Notes: a model not told the origin generated them from the sequence alone. A DNA stretch of 64,000 nt from an uncultured Tateyamaria sp. (GCF_947503465.1 NZ_CANNDN010000006.1:8857-72856), one strand, 5' to 3'. Shown: positions 5,089 to 63,953, numbered from the stretch's first letter. A program made the numbers and translations.

Positions 5089-5430
5089 TCAATCAACGAT
5101 GAAACTGATGGTGCCCTTTTGCGCGTGGCCGTCATCGCCGAGCCCGCGCCATTCGATCAGGTAGGTGCCCTTGCCCATGTCCTGAAGGGGCAACTTGAAA
5201 CGGGACGCGAAACTCTTTTGTCCGTCGAGGGTCATTTGACCCGTTTGCGTTTCTTCGTATGTCCAGGTGACGCGGGTGAGCCGAATGTCACGCTTGAAGG
5301 TCAGAGCGAGTTCGGATGGCGTCGAGCCGAGCCGGTCGCCATGGCCGGGCGACGTGTCCTCCAGCGGTGAATGTGCCGCTGTGGCAGAGGCGAAAGCCCA
5401 GATCACGAGCGCGGCCAGCGTGCATTTCAT
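5089..5430 (-). CDS. copC: periplasmic copper-binding protein CopC-like
   Basis: 113 aa with a signal peptide (MKCTLAALVIWAFASATA) followed by a His-start mature CopC-like domain. Confidence 0.7.
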   Translation of the reverse strand: MKCTLAALVIWAFASATAAHSPLEDTSPGHGDRLGSTPSELALTFKRDIRLTRVTWTYEETQTGQMTLDGQKSFASRFKLPLQDMGKGTYLIEWRGLGDDGHAQKGTISFIVD

Positions 5431-10215: not shown

Positions 10216-11768
10216 GTCACGGCCTCCGGCACTGTGGGTGCGGCATCAATCAACTGTCGTGTATAGGCGTGCCGGGCCGTGCTGAACACGGCTTCGGTTG
10301 TGCCTTGCTCGACAATCTGGCCGCTTTTCATCACTAGCACGCGGTCGGTGATGGTGCGCACGACACTCAGGTCATGGCTGATGAACAGGTATGTCAGGTC
10401 ATATTGGCGGCAGAGGTCGGCAATCAGGTCGAGGATCTGGGCGCGCACGGACACGTCCAATGCGCTGACCGCCTCGTCAAAGATCACCAGGTCGGGCCGG
10501 ATGATCAGCGCGCGGGCGATGGCCAGCCGCTGGCGCTGTCCGCCGGAAAACTGGTGCGGGTACTTCCGGGCGTCATCGGGGGACAGGCCGACATCGGTCA
10601 GTGCCTTGGCGATCCTGTCGGCGCGGTCGGCGGGCGGCGTGCCAAGCAGGTGGAAAGGTTCCGAGATCAGGCGGGCGACGCGGTGGCGCGGATTGAAACT
10701 GCCATAGGGGTCCTGAAACACCACCTGCATCTTGCGCCGCACCGACGGGTCGGTGACGGGTGTGCCGTCCAGCGTGATGGTGCCGCCCTGCACCGGCTCA
10801 AGCCCCAGGATCGCGCGGGTCAGGGTGGATTTTCCACAACCGGATTCGCCCACCAGCCCAACCCGTTCGCCGCGATTGATGTCAAAGCTGACATGATCCA
10901 CGGCCCGATGTTTTGCCGCGGGGACAAACAGGCGGGTGCGGGGCAGGTCATAGTCGCGCACGATGTTGTCGACGCGCAGCAGCGGGGTATCCTGCGCACC
11001 CATGGGCAAGGTGACGCGGTGGTTCGAGGCGGCCAGCAGCGCCCGCGTATAGGGGTGGTGCGGGGCTGTCAGCAAGGCGTGCGCTTCGCCTGTCTCGACC
11101 ACGTTGCCGCCGTGCATGACGACGATCCGGTCGGCCATTTCGGCCACGACGGCAAGGTCATGGGTGATCATCAAAAGGCCCATGCCGTCTTCGGCTGCGA
11201 GCCGTTTGAGCAGGGACAGGATCTGCGCCTGGGTCGTGACATCCAGCGCCGTCGTCGGCTCGTCCGCGATCAACAGTTTTGGACCGCAGGCGATGGCAAT
11301 GGCGATCACCACACGCTGGCGTTGGCCGCCCGACAATTCGTGCGGGTAGCGTGTGAGGGGGATCGCCTGCAATCCCACGCGGTCCAGCACCTGGCGCGCC
11401 CGGGCCGTCGGATCAAGGTCGGGCCGGTGCAGGCGGACCGTCTCGGCCACCTGTGCCCCGATGGTCTGAACGGGGTTCAGCGCCGTCATGGGTTCCTGAA
11501 ACACCATGCCCGCAAGGTCGCCACGCAGCGTGCAGAGCGTCGCCTCGTCCAGCGCCAGCATGTCGTGGCCATCCAGGGTGATTGATCCGGTTGCACTGGC
11601 CTGTGCAGGCAGCAATTGCATCACGGCGAGTGCGGTCATGGATTTACCCGACCCGCTTTCGCCGGTGATCGCGACCACCTCGCCCGGGGCCAGCGACAGG
11701 GAGACATCGCGCAGGATCGGCAGCCCCGCGATGGACAGCGACAGGGTGCGGATGTCGAGCAGGCTCAT
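10212..11768 (-). CDS. ABC transporter ATP-binding protein, fused double ATPase (DppD/DppF-type)
   Basis: 518 aa. Two Walker A motifs ([16 protein letters not shown]) and two LSGGQRQR signatures. Confidence 0.9.
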
Positions 11769-57008: not shown

Positions 57009-57728
57009 ATGAGCCAAACCACCACCATATCCTTCTTCCGCTTCCCGCGGTGGCGCGACCGGGCATGGGCGCTCGGCATGATGGGCGGCGCGCGGCTGTC
57101 CATGGCGCGCATCCCCGATCTGGGGTTCTGGAAGCTGTGTGGCTCAGGCACGGGCGAAGGGTTCACACCGGTGCCCAACACGGCGGTCTATGCGATCCTC
57201 TGCACATGGCCCGACCCCGAAACGGCCCGCGCACGGATCGACACCACCCGCATCTTCCAACGCTACCGCGCCCGCGCGGCCGAAGATTGGACGGTGTTCC
57301 TGTCCCCCACATCATCGCGCGGGGCATGGAGCGGGCAAACCCCCTTTTCCCCCGTATCAGAGCCTGCATCCGATCCGCATGATCAACCCTTGGCCGCCCT
57401 CACCCGCGCCACGATCAAACCCGGCATCCTGACCAAGTTCTGGGGCCGCGTGCCCGACATCTCGGCCATGATCGGCAGCGACCCCAATGTCCTGTTCAAG
57501 ATCGGCATCGGAGAGGTGCCGATGCTGCACCAGGTCACATTCTCCATCTGGCCGGGGGCACGGGAAATGGCCCAATTCGCCCGCACAAACGGCCCCCATG
57601 CCGACGCCATCCGCGCCGTGCGCGCAGGTGCGTGGTTCCGCGAAGAACTCTACGCCCGCTTCACCATCCTTGGCGACAGCGGCACATGGGGCGGCACCAG
57701 CCCGCTCGAAGGATTACGACTGAAATGA
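57009..57728 (+). CDS. crtA: spheroidene monooxygenase
   Basis: Trimmed to [12 protein letters not shown].... About 239 aa. Divergent from crtI and ATGA-coupled to bchI, as in Rhodobacter-type clusters. Confidence 0.8.
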
Positions 57729-58732
57729 CCAAGACGCCCTTTCCCTTCTCCGCCATCGTGGGCCAGGAGGACATGAAACAAGCGATGATCCTCACCGCAG
57801 TTGATCCCGGCATCGGCGGTGTTCTGGTCTTTGGCGACCGGGGCACCGGCAAATCTACCGCGGTGCGCGCGCTGGCGGCGCTCCTGCCCCCGATCACGGC
57901 TGTCACAGGCTGCCCGATCAACGCGGAATCCCATGACCAATGCCCCGGATGGGCCAATGTAGAGACGAAAAAGACCCGAAAAATCCCCACCCCCGTCATC
58001 GACCTGCCGCTGGGCGCCACCGAGGACCGCGTTGTGGGCGCCTTGGACATCGAACGCGCCCTCACCCGCGGCGAAAAGGCGTTCGAACCGGGCCTGCTGG
58101 CCCGCGCCAATCGCGGCTACCTCTATATTGACGAGGTCAACCTGCTCGAAGACCACATTGTCGACCTCCTGCTCGACGTGGCCCAATCCGGCGAAAACGT
58201 GGTCGAACGCGAGGGGCTCAGCATCCGCCACCCCGCCCGCTTCGTGCTGGTGGGCAGTGGCAACCCCGAAGAGGGCGAATTGCGCCCCCAACTCCTCGAC
58301 CGGTTCGGCCTGTCGGTCGAAGTGCGCAGCCCGAACGACGTGGCCCAGCGGATCGAGGTCATCAAGCGGCGCGACGCGTTCGAGTCCGATTTCGACGCGT
58401 TCATGGCCCATTACACCAAGGAAGACGCCAAGATCCGGCGCAAGATCCTTGCCGCGCGCAAGCTTCTGCCCCAGATCGAAACGCCGGACGCCATCCTGCA
58501 CGACTGCGCGGAACTCTGCATCGCGTTGGGCAGCGACGGCCTGCGCGGCGAATTGACCTTGCTCCGCGGCGCCCGCGCGCTGGCCGCCTTTGACCGCAAA
58601 AAGGTGCTCACCCGCGACCACCTCAAACGCATCGCCCCCATCGCCCTGTCCCACCGCCTGCGCCGCGACCCTCTGGACGAGGCCGGCAGCACCACCCGCG
58701 TCACCCGCACGGTCGACGCCGTGCTGGCATGA
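57725..58732 (+). CDS. bchI: magnesium chelatase ATPase subunit I
   Basis: 335-aa AAA+ protein ([35 protein letters not shown]). Confidence 0.95.
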
Positions 58733-58909: not shown

Positions 58910-60553
58910 ATGACCGCCCACAGCTGGCATAACGCGCATCTCGCGCTGCGCCTGCTGGCCCTTGACCCCGCAGGCCTCGGCGGTGCGGTTGTCCGCATGC
59001 GCGCCAGCCCCGACCGCGACGCGTTGCTGGCCGGTTTCACCCCTGCCCTGCCCCTTCGCAAATTGCCCATCTCCATCTCAGACGAACAACTGTTCGGCGG
59101 CATCGACCTCAGCGCCACGCTGTCATCCGCTCAAGTCATTGAAAATAAATCATTTTTTCACAGGCCTTGTATCGCTCAAATCCCCATGGCGGAACGCTGC
59201 CCCCCGGCCCTCGCCGCCAAGCTTGCGCAGCTCGCAGATCAGTCTCTAACACAGGGCTTTTTGCTCCTCGACGAGGGGATCGAGCCTGACGAACGCGCCC
59301 CCGATCCCCTGTCAGATCGCTGCGCCTTTCACCTCGAACCAACGGGTCGAAAACCATCTGTCCCCGCGGGGACACCTCAATCTGTCCCCGCGGGGACAAC
59401 GGTCAATACCGCCGACGCCATCATGCAACTGACCTTGCTCGCCACCCGTTTCGGCATCGCGTCCCTCCGCGCCCCGACCCTTGCGCTGCGCACTGCCCGC
59501 GCCCACGCGCGGCTGATGGGCCGCGACCATCTCACGGACGCCGACCTCGACGTCGCCGCGACCCTCGTCTACCCCCACCGTGCAACGGTCATCCCCGAAG
59601 ACATCGAGGCGGAGGATAGCCCACCTCCCCCACCCCAAAACAACGACTGTCCCCGCGGGGACAGCGAAGAAAACGACGCCATCCCCGACGCGGACATGCT
59701 GGTCGATGCCGTCAAATCCCTGCTGCCCCCCGACCTCCTGAACGGACTTGTCCCCGCGGGGACAACCCGCACATCTGGTGGCGCGGGCGCCGGTCAAAAG
59801 CGCACCAGCAACCGCCGTGGGCGCCCCCTGCCCTCGCGCCCCGGTCGCCTGGACGGCACCGCGCGGATCGACCTGATCGCCACCCTGCGCGCCGCCGCCC
59901 CCTGGCAACCCCTGCGCCGCCAGCAGCAACCGGACCGGACAGGCCTGCTCATCCGTCCGTCCGACATCCGGCTGAAACGCTTCGCCGAACAGTCCGACCG
60001 CCTGCTGATCTTCACCGTGGACGCCTCCGGCTCTGCCGCAGTGTCCCGGCTGGGCGAAGCCAAGGGCGCCATCGAACTCCTGCTGGCCGACGCCTATGCC
60101 AGCCGCGACCACGTCGCCCTCATCGCCTTTCGGGGGACAGAGGCAGAAACCCTCCTGCCCCCCACCCGGTCGCTTGTGCAGACCAAACGCCGCCTGTCGG
60201 CCTTGCCCGGCGGCGGCGGCACGCCGCTTGCCTCGGGCCTGCAACACGCGCTCCTGCTTGCCCAGCACACCAGGGGCAAGGGGCTCACGCCCACTGTCAT
60301 CCTGATCACCGACGGGCGCGCCAACATTGCGCTGGACGGCACCGCCAACCGGGCCCAGGCCGGCGCAGACGCAACGGCCATGGCAACCGCCTTGCGCGCG
60401 ACCGGCACGACATCACTGGTGATCGACATGTCGAACCGGCCCCAGCCCGCCCTGCAGGATCTCAGCCGCGCCCTGGACGCGCCCTACGTGCCCATGCCCC
60501 GCGCTGATGCGCAGCGGCTGAGCGGCGCCGTGGCATCCGCGCTGGACGGCTGA
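58910..60553 (+). CDS. bchD: magnesium chelatase subunit D
   Basis: 547 aa. Degenerate AAA+ N-terminal domain, Pro/acidic linker and C-terminal VWA domain (LLIFTVDASGS...ITDGRAN). No obvious SD. Carries four 16-bp palindromes. Confidence 0.9.
   Translation: MTAHSWHNAHLALRLLALDPAGLGGAVVRMRASPDRDALLAGFTPALPLRKLPISISDEQLFGGIDLSATLSSAQVIENKSFFHRPCIAQIPMAERCPPALAAKLAQLADQSLTQGFLLLDEGIEPDERAPDPLSDRCAFHLEPTGRKPSVPAGTPQSVPAGTTVNTADAIMQLTLLATRFGIASLRAPTLALRTARAHARLMGRDHLTDADLDVAATLVYPHRATVIPEDIEAEDSPPPPPQNNDCPRGDSEENDAIPDADMLVDAVKSLLPPDLLNGLVPAGTTRTSGGAGAGQKRTSNRRGRPLPSRPGRLDGTARIDLIATLRAAAPWQPLRRQQQPDRTGLLIRPSDIRLKRFAEQSDRLLIFTVDASGSAAVSRLGEAKGAIELLLADAYASRDHVALIAFRGTEAETLLPPTRSLVQTKRRLSALPGGGGTPLASGLQHALLLAQHTRGKGLTPTVILITDGRANIALDGTANRAQAGADATAMATALRATGTTSLVIDMSNRPQPALQDLSRALDAPYVPMPRADAQRLSGAVASALDG
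59359..59374. repeat. 16-bp palindrome TGTCCCCGCGGGGACA, perfect (candidate ParB/parS site), inside bchD
   Basis: Exact match. Read in bchD as S-V-P-A-G-T. Confidence 0.9.
59383..59398. repeat. 16-bp palindrome, perfect, inside bchD (tandem with the previous copy at 24-bp period)
   Basis: Exact match. Read as S-V-P-A-G-T. The 19 nt ATCTGTCCCCGCGGGGACA are repeated. Confidence 0.9.
59648..59663. repeat. 16-bp palindrome, perfect, inside the bchD acidic/Pro linker
   Basis: Exact match. Read in a different frame as C-P-R-G-D. Confidence 0.9.
59749..59764. repeat. 16-bp palindrome, perfect, inside bchD
   Basis: Exact match. Read as L-V-P-A-G-T. Confidence 0.9.
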
Positions 60554-60556
60554 TCC

Positions 60557-61429
60557 ATGGACTGGTCGCAGATCAAATCGTGGCCCAATTCCAACCTGTC
60601 CCGGCGGGGACACGGACCTGTGCATCGCTGGCATATTCAGGAGGCAGGCGCAGGCAAGACGGTCCTCATGCTGCATGGCGCGGGCGGGTCGACGCATTCC
60701 TATCGCGGCCTGATCCCGACGCTCGCCCAGGACTTTCGTGTGATCGCGCTGGACTTGCCCGGACATGGGTTCACCCAGTTGGGCGCCCGGCACCGGTGCG
60801 GCCTGGATGCGATGGCCGAGGATGTGAAAAAGCTGTGCGACCACGAAGGCTGGACACCGGACGCGATTGTCGGGCATTCGGCAGGCGGTGCGGTGGCGCT
60901 GCGCCTTGCGGAAAGCGATCTGTCCCCGCGGGGACAAACGCCACTGGTGATCGGGATCAACGCCGCGACCGAGCAGTTCAAGGGCATCGCAGGGCTGCTG
61001 TTTCCCGTCATGGCAAAGGCCCTGGCCGCCGTCCCGTTCACGGCCTCGCTGTTCTCGGGCGCGTCCGCCAGCCCTGACCGGATCAAGGCCCTGATCGGTT
61101 CAACAGGGTCTGTTCTGGATGCCGAAGGGTTGGACCTGTACCGGCGGCTGGTGGGCGACCGGAACCATGTGGACGGAACCCTGCTGATGATGGCGCAATG
61201 GAAGTTGAACCCGTTGCTTGCCCGCCTGCCGGATCATCCTGCGCGGGTGCATCTGCTGGTTGGAGACAAGGACACAACCGTGCCGCCGGCGGTGTCGCGA
61301 AATGCGGCGGCACGCATGCGGGATGCCACCGTGCACATGCTGGATGGCCTGGGGCATCTGGCCCATGAAGAACAGCCCTTCGAGACCGCGCGCATGATCC
61401 GCGATATCATCCGGGACGCGCTGCGATAG
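60557..61429 (+). CDS. bchO: alpha/beta hydrolase BchO
   Basis: 290 aa. HGAGGSTHS and GHSAGG motifs. Canonical position after bchD. Confidence 0.8.
   Translation: MDWSQIKSWPNSNLSRRGHGPVHRWHIQEAGAGKTVLMLHGAGGSTHSYRGLIPTLAQDFRVIALDLPGHGFTQLGARHRCGLDAMAEDVKKLCDHEGWTPDAIVGHSAGGAVALRLAESDLSPRGQTPLVIGINAATEQFKGIAGLLFPVMAKALAAVPFTASLFSGASASPDRIKALIGSTGSVLDAEGLDLYRRLVGDRNHVDGTLLMMAQWKLNPLLARLPDHPARVHLLVGDKDTTVPPAVSRNAAARMRDATVHMLDGLGHLAHEEQPFETARMIRDIIRDALR
60597..60612. repeat. 16-bp palindrome, 15/16 (TGTCCCGGCGGGGACA), inside the bchO N-terminus
   Basis: One mismatch at position 7. Read as L-S-R-R-G-H. Confidence 0.8.
60911..60926. repeat. 16-bp palindrome, perfect, inside bchO
   Basis: Exact match. 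Read as L-S-P-R-G-Q. Shares the left flank AGCGATC with the copy at 61435. Confidence 0.9.
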
Positions 61430-61434
61430 CGATC

Positions 61435-61450
61435 TGTCCCCGCGGGGACA
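61435..61450. repeat. 16-bp palindrome, perfect, 5 nt after the bchO stop
   Basis: Exact match, intergenic. Confidence 0.9.
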
Positions 61451-61464
61451 CCCAGTTTTTGTCC

Positions 61465-61497
61465 ACAAAAAAGCCCGCCAGATCGGCGGGCTTTTGC
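61465..61497. terminator. bidirectional intrinsic terminator between convergent bchO and parB
   Basis: ACAAAAAAGCCCGCC-agatc-GGCGGGCTTTTGCA: a 9-bp GC-rich stem with an A-tract on one side and a T-tract on the other. Confidence 0.75.
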
Positions 61498-61500
61498 ATT

Positions 61501-61516
61501 TGTCCCCGCGGGGACA
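61501..61516. repeat. 16-bp palindrome, perfect, 2 nt from the parB stop
   Basis: Exact match, intergenic. Together with the 61435 copy it brackets the terminator hairpin. Confidence 0.9.
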
Positions 61517-61518
61517 GA

Positions 61519-62571
61519 TCACAGATCAAGCTGATCCAGCAGGGCGCGCACCGCCGCTTCGAGCTTGCGCGGATCGAGGGAACCGAAGTCGCGGTTCATC
61601 TGCAATTCGATTTTGCCCTTTGCGCCGATGACCTTCACCGCGCCGGCCTTGCGGTTCAGCTTGATCGTCGTCTTGGACGAGGTTGAGGGCGCGGCCTGTT
61701 CGCTCACCGGTTTGGGGGCCACGACCTTGTTCAGCACGGCCAGCTCGGCCACGGCGTCGTTGGGCTTTTGATGTTCCAGCAGCACGTTCAACTGCTGGGC
61801 TGTGCGCGGCTGTTCTTCGAGCGCCTTGATCAGCTTGAGACCAAGCGCGCGGGGGATCGCTTCGGGGTATTGCAGCCGGTGGCCCAATTGATCCATCAAG
61901 AGACTGAAACTGCCTATGTAGTGACGCTTTTGCCGTCCGGCAGACGCAAAGAGAACCGCGATGGCATCGTTCAATTCAAGATCCATCTGACGGGCGTAGC
62001 TGGACGCCAGCTGGCCCATCTCGGCGAAGGAGATATCGCGCCGGACCATGTTTTCGTCGACCATGCGGCGGTAGAGTTTTTCGAGTGCTTCGCCCTTGGC
62101 CACCAGCACGGCCGGGATGGCGGCGTATTTTTCGTCGCCCGTCTCTTCATACAGCGATTTATAGGCGCTGAGACGGCGGAAACCCTGGATCAACTCATAC
62201 CCTTCGCCGGTGTCCTCGACCTGGATCGGGTTCGACAGTCCCAGATCGCGGATCGAAGTTTTCAACTCTTCAAGGTCCGGGTCGCGATTGGTGCTGCGGT
62301 CGCGCGTCAGCTTTTTCATCGCCACGTCCCCAAGGGGAACGCGGGCCACAATCGCGCCATCCCTTTTTAGAGACACATATTCGTGGGCAAGCCGGTCATT
62401 CTCGGCGCGAATCTCCGCCTCTGCCGAGTGGCGTTCGCTGAGAGCCGTGGCGTTTTCCGAGATGGCGGCAGCCATGGGGCCACGGCGGGTTTCGGGGGCA
62501 GGGGCCTCGGCTGCGTCCTCGGGCCCTGCGCCCGGTTCAAAATCAATGTCGAATACGCGGCGTTTGCTCAT
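61519..62571 (-). CDS. parB: ParB/RepB-type plasmid partition protein
   Basis: 350 aa. ParB N-terminal domain (NPIQVEDTGEGYELIQGFRRLSAYK). ATGA overlap with parA. Confidence 0.85.
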   Translation of the reverse strand: MSKRRVFDIDFEPGAGPEDAAEAPAPETRRGPMAAAISENATALSERHSAEAEIRAENDRLAHEYVSLKRDGAIVARVPLGDVAMKKLTRDRSTNRDPDLEELKTSIRDLGLSNPIQVEDTGEGYELIQGFRRLSAYKSLYEETGDEKYAAIPAVLVAKGEALEKLYRRMVDENMVRRDISFAEMGQLASSYARQMDLELNDAIAVLFASAGRQKRHYIGSFSLLMDQLGHRLQYPEAIPRALGLKLIKALEEQPRTAQQLNVLLEHQKPNDAVAELAVLNKVVAPKPVSEQAAPSTSSKTTIKLNRKAGAVKVIGAKGKIELQMNRDFGSLDPRKLEAAVRALLDQLDL

Positions 62572-63872
62572 GCCTCATCCTCCAGTTGGTCCCAGGCTGT
62601 TCCCAGGTTCGTTTTGAATTCTTCATAAGCCCGGTCAAAGGACGCGCGGGCGCGGCGCCAGGTTTCGCGGGTCATGTCCCGGTAATCTATTTCGTAGATA
62701 CTGCTGAGGAATCGCCCTGACTGCTCGACGGCGCGGGTCATTTCGATCGGGTGTTCGCAGACGCGGTCGCCGAACACCTTTTGGAAGGCACCCTGCATGG
62801 CGCGATGCAATTCGTTGCCCGGCTCGAACCGGGTGAGCAGGAAGCGGAGGTCGAGGAAGGTCTTGGGCAAGGTCATTGTCCCCGCGGGGACAAGCCCGTT
62901 GAAGCGCGACAGATCTTCGAGCGCTTCGGACAATTGGCCGATGAAGGACGTGGTGGAATCGTATTCCCAGTAGCCGGGGCCGGAGGGGATGTAGAGCACG
63001 TCGGCGGCGAAGACCGCGTTCATGGACTGGTAGCCGATGGCGGGCGGGCAGTCGAACAGGATGAGGTCATAGGTGTCGGCCGCGATCTGGTCGAGGAAGC
63101 GCGAGACGGCGGCGAAGAAGGACCATTCGGGGTTGATGTGCCGGTATTGCGCGGAGGCAAATTCGACGAAGGCGGCGTTGGCGCAGCTTGGCACGATGTC
63201 GATCGTGGGCCAGTTCGTGGGCTTGATGAAGTCGCTGGCGCGCAGGTCATTGAGCCCCATGTCGGTGATTGCCGCAGGCAGCTTGCGTTGGGGCAGGGCG
63301 GTGCCTGATTCCGCGCCGCGCAGCGCGGAGTTCATGCGGTCCGTCTCGAACCCCAGATCGCGGGCCATGATGCCCCAGACGGTGTATTCCTCGGCCACGT
63401 CCGACAGGCCCATGGAGTGGCTGAGCGTGGCTTGCGGGTCGAAATCGACGCAGAGCACGCGGTAGCCGTCGAGGGCGGCGGCGTGGGCGAAGTGCAGCGC
63501 CGTGGTGGATTTGCCGGCGCCCCCCTTGAAGTTGGCGATGGCGGCGCGGATGGCGCGCTTGTTCACCGGGCGGTAGGGCATCATCGACTTGCGGTTCACC
63601 TTGATCCGGCGGCGCAACTCGTTGATTTCATCGAGGGAGTACCAGCGTTGGCGGCCGTCTTCCTCGACCGTGCCCTGGGGCAGGGAAGGGTCGGCGGCGA
63701 GGCGGCCGCGCAGGGTGGATTGGTTGGCCTTGAAGATCAGTTCCGCCACTTCCCAGCTTGAGAAACGGCGGAGGGTCTTTTCGCTTTCGGGCGAGTAGGT
63801 TTGCTGGCGGATGAACCCCTGCATCTTGAGGGATTGCGCCTGAAGCTGGGCGAGGTCTGTGTGCGTAAACAT
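62568..63872 (-). CDS. parA: ParA/RepA-type plasmid partition ATPase (long, type Ia-like)
   Basis: 434 aa. Deviant Walker A KGGAGKST with an N-terminal extension. Typical of RepA/ParA from alphaproteobacterial plasmids. Confidence 0.9.
   Translation of the reverse strand: MFTHTDLAQLQAQSLKMQGFIRQQTYSPESEKTLRRFSSWEVAELIFKANQSTLRGRLAADPSLPQGTVEEDGRQRWYSLDEINELRRRIKVNRKSMMPYRPVNKRAIRAAIANFKGGAGKSTTALHFAHAAALDGYRVLCVDFDPQATLSHSMGLSDVAEEYTVWGIMARDLGFETDRMNSALRGAESGTALPQRKLPAAITDMGLNDLRASDFIKPTNWPTIDIVPSCANAAFVEFASAQYRHINPEWSFFAAVSRFLDQIAADTYDLILFDCPPAIGYQSMNAVFAADVLYIPSGPGYWEYDSTTSFIGQLSEALEDLSRFNGLVPAGTMTLPKTFLDLRFLLTRFEPGNELHRAMQGAFQKVFGDRVCEHPIEMTRAVEQSGRFLSSIYEIDYRDMTRETWRRARASFDRAYEEFKTNLGTAWDQLEDEA
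62877..62892. repeat. 16-bp palindrome, perfect, inside parA
   Basis: Exact match. Read on the minus strand as L-V-P-A-G-T. Confidence 0.9.
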
Positions 63873-63888
63873 GCGCTGCCTGTTGATG

Positions 63889-63904
63889 TGTCCCCGCGGG
63901 GACA
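63889..63904. repeat. 16-bp palindrome, perfect, upstream of parA (16 nt between it and the start codon)
   Basis: Exact match in the putative parA promoter/operator region. Confidence 0.9.
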
Positions 63905-63914
63905 GGTGGTGTCT

Positions 63915-63930
63915 TGCCCCTGCGGGGGCA
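63915..63930. repeat. degenerate copy (TGCCCCTGCGGGGGCA, 13/16) upstream of parA
   Basis: Sits between two good copies with centre spacing of 26 and 23 bp. Taken alone, a 13/16 match would be borderline chance. Confidence 0.55.
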
Positions 63931-63937
63931 TCTTGTG

Positions 63938-63953
63938 TGTCCCCGCGGGGACG
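63938..63953. repeat. 16-bp palindrome, 15/16 (TGTCCCCGCGGGGACG), upstream of parA
   Basis: One mismatch at the last position. Confidence 0.8.

Follow-up and report, generated by a model that had tools for sequence, protein, structure and literature searches.

Compatibility groups of alphaproteobacterial repABC plasmids carry group-specific parS palindromes of 14-16 bp (PMC5613091, PMC11107812). In photosynthesis-gene-cluster (PGC) plasmids of the DnaA-like-I compatibility group, the replication module occupies a fixed central position within the cluster (PMC6052148, PMC6739100), with parAB lying divergent beside a replicase of ~227 amino acids (aa), between bchO and the hemA side of the cluster (PMC6052148); neither of the two latter papers mentions a palindrome or parS. 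Here, we analyzed 64 kb of DNA from an uncultured Tateyamaria sp. (NZ_CANNDN010000006.1:8857-72856; this whole stretch is hereafter the window), a PGC plasmid whose parAB operon is surrounded by copies of the 16-bp palindrome TGTCCCCGCGGGGACA. Judged by sequence comparison, this 16-mer is very probably the group-specific parS of the type-Ia-like ParAB that accompanies DnaA-like-I plasmid replicons of Rhodobacterales.

A pattern search of the window, allowing up to three mismatches and run against 100 shuffles, returned 13 matches to TGTCCCCGCGGGGACA, compared to a shuffle mean of 0.84; none of the 100 shuffles reached 13. Twelve of the matches fall within 59359-63953 (nine perfect, two with one mismatch, one with three), and the remaining ~59 kb hold no perfect copy and a single, chance-level three-mismatch match at 10911. 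A preliminary description of this DNA had called the motif over-represented and sharply localized around parAB, which the search bears out; its coordinates were all exact except for one, 60911, a typo for 60921. Its placement of half of the copies in photosynthesis genes was likewise confirmed, with four copies in bchD and two in bchO. Two more lie in the bchO-parB spacer, one in parA and three upstream of parA, bringing the copies within coding sequence to seven of the 12. The array is cut off at the window edge, because the window stops 128 bp upstream of parA. Loci and plasmids with the same ParAB lineage are referred to as cognate, and L numbers denote comparison loci. The individual copies, to which no strand is assigned, are as follows:

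59359..59374: perfect 16-mer in bchD, reading VPAGT (BchD residues 151-155)
59383..59398: perfect 16-mer in bchD, a second VPAGT, 24 bp after the first copy
59648..59663: perfect 16-mer in bchD, reading CPRGD in the Pro/acid-rich linker; Tateyamaria-specific
59749..59764: perfect 16-mer in bchD, reading VPAGT (LVPAGT); kept in cognate photosynthesis plasmids
60597..60612: one-mismatch copy TGTCCCGGCGGGGACA in bchO; identical variant in Tateyamaria omphalii and in locus L141
60921..60936: perfect 16-mer in bchO, reading LSPRGQ in a variable loop; kept in cognate photosynthesis plasmids
61435..61450: perfect 16-mer between bchO and parB, 5 nt 3' of the bchO stop codon
61501..61516: perfect 16-mer, 2 nt 3' of the parB stop codon, in a TGA-TC-16mer arrangement
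62877..62892: perfect 16-mer in parA at +980 from the start codon, reading VPAGT, codon 327
63889..63904: perfect 16-mer upstream of parA, 32 bp before the parA start
63915..63930: degenerate copy TGCCCCTGCGGGGGCA, three mismatches, ahead of parA
63938..63953: one-mismatch copy TGTCCCCGCGGGGACG upstream of parA, from the pattern search

The palindromes beside homologous parAB operons in other Rhodobacterales, a comparison already suggested by the preliminary description, turned out to be the same. Clusters of the identical 16-mer were present at all 26 loci of this ParAB lineage, spread over ~15 genera that include Tateyamaria, Roseobacter, Thalassococcus, Leisingera, Alloyangia, Salipiger, Aliiroseovarius, Celeribacter, Roseinatronobacter, Falsirhodobacter, Pararhodobacter and Pseudophaeobacter; the par loci of Salipiger, Celeribacter, Falsirhodobacter, Pararhodobacter, Pseudophaeobacter and others came from a species-wide exact-match scan of one genome per species. 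Identity to the window proteins ranged from 77 to 100% for ParA and from 47 to 100% for ParB, with the 16-mer invariant throughout and 3-17 copies per locus. When mapped to a common coordinate counted from the parA start codon, the copies revealed a conserved layout. The +980 site within parA (codon 327) was present in 24 of the 26 loci, upstream sites fell at -25 to -217, and further sites were frequent at +1345 to +1366 (the parA/parB junction) or at +2260 to +2290 (the parB 3' end). Arrays of up to 11 copies followed downstream of parB, and the PGC plasmids had sites at ~+2845 (bchO), ~+4015 and ~+4400 (both bchD). Across the 26 loci, inverted repeats thus recur beside the operon and mainly downstream of parB.

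Single sites can be followed between lineages. The 59359 position in bchD is conserved in all cognate photosynthesis plasmids and is perfect in Tateyamaria, Thalassococcus, Roseobacter ponti, Roseobacter litoralis and Roseobacter sp. YSTF-M11, with three mismatches in Roseobacter denitrificans, and the 59383 site is confined to the Tateyamaria and Thalassococcus lineages. T. omphalii (L001 8451/8475) and Thalassococcus (L132 6384/6408) share the exact 24-bp start-to-start spacing of these two copies; the 8 bp between them differ among the window, T. omphalii and Thalassococcus. Upstream of parA, the TGTCCCCGCGGGGACG variant recurs in R. litoralis, Thalassococcus, Alloyangia and YSTF-M11.

Two complete related plasmids, of 77.6 and 93.6 kb, contained no copies outside the par region. 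The smaller, from T. omphalii, has the 16-mer at all orthologous positions plus one extra perfect copy further upstream of parA, before the DnaA-like replicase gene; the larger, R. litoralis pRLO149_94, has three perfect and three one-mismatch copies, none of them outside bchD, bchO, parA and the parA leader. Cognate plasmids without photosynthesis genes carry the motif as well: nine perfect copies in Leisingera caerulea, 14 in Alloyangia pacifica (mostly a tandem array downstream of parB), three in Roseinatronobacter, and one perfect plus two one-mismatch copies in Aliiroseovarius.

A few matches lay in less expected places. An 8.3-kb contig binned as Dysgonamonadaceae (JAIRZF010000230.1, L078; a Bacteroidota metagenome-assembled genome, MAG) has three perfect 16-mers within 130 bp and is probably a mis-binned Rhodobacterales plasmid fragment. 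Short arrays in Cypionkella aquatica (L112:6932-7085) and a Pseudorhodobacter MAG (L101:2179-2227) had no ParA or ParB match within the 8-kb block; their par genes may lie just past the block edge, or the arrays may be orphan.

Presence of the motif depends on the cognate ParAB. Within bchD and bchO, no copy was found at up to 3-4 mismatches in four comparison loci without it, namely Sulfitobacter guttiformis pSD118 (where a RepB-III module has replaced DnaA-like-I), Sulfitobacter sp. S190 (ParB 33% identical), the cluster on the Roseinatronobacter chromid, and a Tateyamaria chromosomal cluster in which parAB has been lost. Large contigs that keep parAB beside bchO, such as that of Roseobacter sp. 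YSTF-M11 (1.07 Mb) and a 702-kb ENA contig, also keep perfect sites. In R. denitrificans, the chromosomal photosynthesis cluster, which is nested among plasmid-borne ones (PMC6052148), has no parAB, and the sites at bchD +464, bchD +854 and bchO +364 carry three, two and four mismatches, respectively, as opposed to zero, one and one in R. litoralis. Because the bchDO regions of the two species are 81% identical, these sites have diverged like ordinary sequence. The relics (L139:7465, 7855 and 9024) occupy bchD/bchO positions that are perfect in plasmid-borne clusters, and their sequences are consistent with a fossil of the published plasmid-to-chromosome return. Sites are also still being gained: bchD +1031 is perfect only in the R. 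litoralis lineage (L002:3480), with 9-10 mismatches at this position in R. ponti and YSTF-M11, which points to a recent gain.

A replicase swap separates the motif from the neighboring replication gene. On the Roseinatronobacter plasmid L010, a cognate ParAB lies with an unrelated 426-aa initiator and three perfect sites, implying that the motif follows ParAB rather than the replicase. The preliminary description had read the array as the parS of the adjacent ParAB, and this reading has held up in every comparison made: the motif accompanies ParAB at 26 loci, is missing from loci that lack parAB or encode a ParB of another type, shows decay after parAB loss, and stays with ParAB when the replicase is exchanged. 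Other ParB groups of DnaA-like plasmids have GC-rich palindromes of their own directly 3' of parB, which are candidate parS sites of these groups. In Sulfitobacter sp. S190 this is GGGTTACCCGCGGGTAACCC, also given as CAGGGTTACCCGCGGGTAACCCTG, present once (L133:8446-8469), and on a Pseudosulfitobacter plasmid GGTAACCCATGGGTTACC occurs twice (L150:5074-5091 and 5147-5164).

Protein alignments revealed how the in-gene sites arose. In BchD, sites lie in the loop before the AAA lid, where VPAGT contrasts with the TPVWP, IPEFR or PECDP of non-cognate clusters; those in the Pro/acid-rich linker read CPRGD and LVPAGT, the latter against LNTGGT or LSSGKA. The BchO site occupies the loop LSPRGQ, and the ParA site a loop for which the S190 ParA (59% identical) has AEDAG. 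No 16-bp indel was present at any site in the BchD, BchO and ParA alignments. Given that the segments are variable and free of such indels, the sites originated by point substitution under DNA-level selection, not by insertion of a mobile element. Their location appears to be a matter of space. In R. litoralis, R. ponti and Thalassococcus, bchO and parB overlap, and across photosynthesis plasmids the spacer measures 0-90 bp; plasmids without the photosynthesis cluster accommodate the array in 0.5-1.2 kb of mostly non-coding DNA after parB. Where bchO adjoins parB or runs into it, only coding DNA offers room nearby. On the simplest reading, the system requires several sites no more than a few kilobases from parB, and this shortage of intergenic DNA accounts for their position in bchD and bchO better than does regulation of pigment genes.

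The gene context, derived from an open reading frame (ORF) listing and Pfam searches, is as follows:

57632-58732, plus strand: bchI (ORF listing, Pfam)
58910-60553, plus strand: bchD, Mg-chelatase subunit D, hosting four sites
60557-61429, plus strand: bchO, alpha/beta hydrolase, hosting two sites
61473..61491, no strand assigned: GC-rich hairpin GCCCGCCAGATCGGCGGGC with an A-run on one side and a T-run on the other, read directly from the sequence
61519-62571, minus strand: parB, 350 aa, ParB_N domain
62568-63872, minus strand: parA, 434 aa, Walker-type ATPase

The parA and parB genes overlap by 4 bp, with parB second in the operon. The convergent bchO and parB are separated in the window by an 89-bp spacer, in which the hairpin is flanked by two 16-mers; a simple terminator scan left it unlisted, and it looks like a bidirectional terminator of the two genes. 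The nearest complete record, T. omphalii plasmid pDOK1-4-3 (85.6% identity over 5.1 kb), has the same order of bchI, bchD, bchO, parB and parA, followed by the 227-aa DnaA-like replicase; the window stops before the position at which this orthologous plasmid has its replicase. The position of parAB inside the window's photosynthesis cluster agrees with the published module (PMC6052148). The window BchD is 100% identical to a protein encoded by an 83-kb contig of an uncultured Tateyamaria sp.

ParA has the deviant Walker A motif NFKGGAGKST at residues 114-123 and an ATPase domain that starts at about residue 110, leaving an N-terminal extension of ~110 aa, as is typical of the long ParA proteins of type Ia. 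In ParB, the segment QGFRRLSA (GFRR box) aligns to AGERRYRA of Thermus thermophilus Spo0J, which belongs to the CTP-binding GERRxRA box; overall likeness to Spo0J is weak (E = 1e-6 over ~115 residues). Binding, spreading and partition activity of ParB at the sites are what we infer from these sequences. ParB dimers would recognize the 16-bp palindrome. Since they retain the CTP-binding GxRR box, they would probably be loaded at it as clamps and spread over the ~4.6-kb region, and ParA would segregate the resulting ParB-DNA complex on the nucleoid. Sites upstream of parA probably also serve autoregulation, and the copy at 63889 is likely an operator and a parS site in one. Selection would have written the sites into tolerant loops of BchD, BchO and ParA.

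Several observations weigh against the assignment to ParAB. The nearest NCBIfam families of ParA, RepA (216 bits, cut-off 348) and SopA, both score under their equivalog cut-offs, RepB reaches 29 of the required 201 bits, and the Pfam ParB_N score of ParB (26.9 bits) barely exceeds the cut-off of 26.3. L010 is the sole locus that separates ParAB from the DnaA-like replicase, and with a single dissociation the DnaA-like initiator could still use copies in the parA-rep intergenic region. Furthermore, Tateyamaria chromosomes carry copies away from any par locus, so that in this genus the motif is not exclusively a plasmid centromere, and at least ten of these chromosomal loci have a ~175-nt repeat that is headed by the 16-mer and fills convergent intergenic regions. 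The chromosomal copies nonetheless leave the parS assignment of the window array unweakened.

Chromosomal figures refer to the 120 matches listed in the species-wide scan, and per-genome counts are estimates. Among the matches listed, single perfect copies were present on large chromosomal contigs of at least 11 Tateyamaria genomes, and related MAGs and a few Pseudorhodobacter and Actibacterium also had matches. The complete 4.3-Mb chromosome of Tateyamaria sp. SN3-11 holds at least five perfect copies (e.g., L029, L042, L046, L048, L059), and an 81.5-kb contig of this strain encodes a cognate ParB. Base composition predicts ~0.005 copies per genome. Density was estimated from second copies within the same 8-kb block (two perfect and two one-mismatch copies in 296 kb) and from the share of obviously random matches in unrelated phyla among the 120 matches listed; as a rough estimate, a Tateyamaria genome contains ~30 chromosomal copies, or ~1 per 100 kb (75-150 kb), versus one per 0.5 kb in the par region. 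The preliminary description had reasoned that a generic repetitive extragenic palindrome (REP) would occur at similar density all over the genome. Occurrence away from par does apply to Tateyamaria; the density there is put at about 1000-fold below that of the par region. In T. omphalii DOK1-4, three other plasmids, amounting to just 184 kb of sequence, contained no copy.

In an all-against-all comparison, 72 of 116 non-par copies had no flank similarity to any other, and the rest were mostly orthologues between species; no halo of degenerate copies accompanied the chromosomal ones (296 kb). Placement is far from random: 38% are in coding-like ORFs and 61% outside, as compared to 73% of random positions falling in such ORFs, and 23% start within 12 nt after a stop codon, a ~15-fold excess over the 1.6% of random positions. 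These post-stop copies often have the TGA-TC-16mer arrangement of the window copy after parB. Among k-mers enriched in the flanks there were just AT-rich words of intergenic type, and G was favored at +1. A candidate GGTTAAC promoter motif reduced to the TTAACC block of the ~175-nt repeat.

This repeat consists, in order, of a perfect 16-mer, GCCTGTTCG, GATCTTAAC, GCGGGATCAA, an invariant TTAACC block and GGCGGGCGGTC, and the TGA stop codon of the upstream gene often abuts it. A flank-only profile found 12 instances, all 12 beside a perfect 16-mer, and none in the window or any plasmid locus. Rfam gave no match to the repeat, which apart from the hairpin showed no conserved fold. Its loci are:

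L126:5385-5590, minus strand: ~175-nt repeat
L059:3036-3240: ~175-nt repeat
L111:6971-7175: ~175-nt repeat
L103:397-601: ~175-nt repeat
L029:2522-2726: ~175-nt repeat
L042:3630-3833, minus strand: ~175-nt repeat
L048:6265-6464, minus strand: ~175-nt repeat
L105:3917-4121: ~175-nt repeat
L040:293-497: ~175-nt repeat
L089:3242-3446: ~175-nt repeat

Some of the in-gene chromosomal copies sit on conserved peptide motifs, such as SPRG of TrmD, for which four genomes use a perfect 16-mer (L011:4425, L099:3354, L039:6899, L051:2767). The site has one mismatch in T. omphalii DOK1-4 and three in a Tateyamaria genome without parAB beside its photosynthesis cluster (L147:1371; L148:1365), and most TrmD homologues read MSPRGR, which is incompatible with encoding the site. 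Since the SPRG protein motif already fixes most bases, TrmD is ambiguous evidence for selection. It is conceivable, if rather doubtful, that the chromosomal copies in Tateyamaria have been recruited genome-wide, with the plasmid ParB, or a host factor of the same specificity, binding to them. If so, the photosynthesis replicon might be tethered to or co-positioned with the nucleoid, or ParB might have a genome-wide role akin to that of KorB or Noc, and the decayed parS of chromosomal clusters such as that of R. denitrificans would be molecular fossils of a plasmid past. Binding by the plasmid ParB would make it an unusual partition protein with a chromosome-wide set of sites.

Could the 16-mer have gathered around parAB as a self-propagating palindrome of the REP or MITE (miniature inverted-repeat transposable element) type, with no role in partition, as the preliminary description had considered? 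Its dispersal over Tateyamaria chromosomes, at roughly one copy per 75-150 kb, the REP-like preference for non-coding and post-stop positions, and the repeat-headed loci would all suit such an element. The copies in the window do not show the combination of conserved flanks, insertion and extragenic location by which it would be known: together with their orthologues in bchD, bchO and parA they are substitutions without indels, and the ~175-nt repeat occurs neither in the window nor at any plasmid locus. Unique flanks at 72 of 116 non-par copies, the lack of further copies on the two complete plasmids and in 184 kb of DOK1-4 plasmids, and their disappearance or decay exactly where the cognate parAB is missing argue in the same direction, as does the par-clustering in many genera that have few or no single non-par matches among those listed. 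We therefore reject this origin for the window copies and regard it as extremely unlikely overall; for a subset of the chromosomal copies, the rejection is less than complete. An action at the RNA level, with the copies forming hairpins that terminate transcription or protect 3' ends instead of serving as DNA sites, seems scarcely credible. The 16-mer can form a GC hairpin of 6-7 bp, the simple scan flagged 61435 and 63937 as terminator-like, and two window copies as well as 23% of the chromosomal ones directly follow stop codons. Yet seven of the 12 window copies fall within coding DNA, in which a terminator would do harm, all 16 bases are perfectly conserved without the compensatory variation that hairpin selection would leave, and a separate terminator-like hairpin already lies between the two intergenic copies.

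The palindromes might instead serve the DnaA-like initiator, or another regulator encoded beside parAB, as iterons or operators. The DnaA-like-I replicase adjoins parAB in 17 of the 18 loci whose upstream region was covered, so that the motif co-occurs with it almost as well as with ParB, and several copies occupy the parA-rep intergenic region, where an origin would be expected. Most copies, however, are downstream of parB or within parA and parB, 1-4.5 kb from the replicase gene, and L010 retains them beside its unrelated replicase. A perfect 16-bp palindrome with TGT...ACA ends is the format of parS and differs from the asymmetric DnaA box. Taken together, we deem sites for an initiator very unlikely. 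A last proposal would add to the parS reading rather than replace it: in-gene sites might have been favored for letting the ParB complex adjust bchIDO expression. Transcriptional repression by ParB homologues is known, for instance by KorB, and the bchD +464, bchD +854 and bchO +364 sites are conserved across genera. Equivalent non-coding arrays nevertheless lie at the same distance from parB in plasmids that have no photosynthesis cluster, photosynthesis plasmids leave only the 0-90 bp between bchO and parB, and no site falls in a bch promoter. The coupling of segregation to pigment expression that the preliminary description had raised thus finds no support in these comparisons and is improbable.

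With TGTCCCCGCGGGGACA as the predicted parS, a concrete centromere sequence becomes available for a plasmid family that spreads photosynthesis, type VI secretion and other traits among marine Roseobacters, which would be useful in vector design and for predicting incompatibility. It would also mean that a replicon residing inside the photosynthesis cluster has shaped Mg-chelatase coding sequence to double as centromere DNA. The decayed copies in R. denitrificans provide independent sequence evidence for the plasmid-to-chromosome transfer scenario (PMC6052148). Literature searches found the exact 16-mer in no paper, and half-sites returned noise; an earlier description in the founding literature on DnaA-like plasmids is possible.

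Among described partition systems, the window locus resembles type Ia (P1 ParA/ParB-parS, F SopA/SopB-sopC) in its long ParA with an N-terminal extension, its large ParB with ParB_N and helix-turn-helix, and its repeated inverted-repeat centromere mainly downstream of parB, with operators in the parA promoter. It differs in that the site sequence is unrelated and dispersed over 4.6 kb, half of it in coding sequence, whereas P1 parS is compact and F sopC consists of 12 tandem 43-bp repeats; moreover, no architecture of the integration host factor type is evident at the array, and SopA and RepA scores lie far below the cut-offs. With the RepA/RepB-parS of repABC plasmids it shares a near-invariant, group-specific perfect palindrome that defines the compatibility group, is present in two to three or more copies in or near the operon and may be intragenic, as well as the host order and RepA as the best NCBIfam match of its ParA. 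The window system has neither repC—convergent bchO takes its place after parB—nor antisense RNA, though; the replicase of related plasmids is a divergently transcribed DnaA-like protein, the palindrome is GC-rich (GTCCCCG/CGGGGAC) in contrast to the repABC type TTnACnG/CnGTnAA, and the 3-17 copies per locus exceed the repABC number.

Chromosomal ParB(Spo0J)-parS, with the consensus TGTTNCACGTGNAACA, likewise combines a perfect 16-bp palindrome with TGT...ACA ends and a ParB_N arginine box, and chromosomal parS sites are often inside genes, e.g., within spo0J. Just eight of 16 positions are identical between TGTTNCACGTGNAACA and the window palindrome (the outer TGT/ACA, C6 and G11), ParB likeness is weak, and the partner is a long ParA of plasmid type. 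Dispersed sets of ParB-family sites are known from Vibrio cholerae ParB2-parS2 (with one site on the other chromosome), RK2 KorB-OB and Bacillus Noc-NBS. These resemble the present case in having a ParB-type palindrome at many places, including a replicon that does not encode the protein, and offer the nearest parallel to the Tateyamaria chromosomal copies; unlike KorB sites, those on the window plasmid are not spread over promoters, and the chromosomal copies are candidate ParB sites only. REPs and bacterial interspersed mosaic elements are similar in that chromosomal copies prefer positions immediately 3' of stop codons and the spacers between convergent genes, with a subset in a longer repeat, and dissimilar in that the palindrome is short and perfect, has no degenerate halo, and lies in coding sequence in ~40% of its chromosomal copies. 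By its sequence, the window system fits a type-Ia-like ParABS that is neither a repABC member nor a user of canonical parS. It is an expected kind of element, unusual in that half of its sites lie in chlorophyll-synthesis genes and in the scatter of its palindrome over the chromosome.

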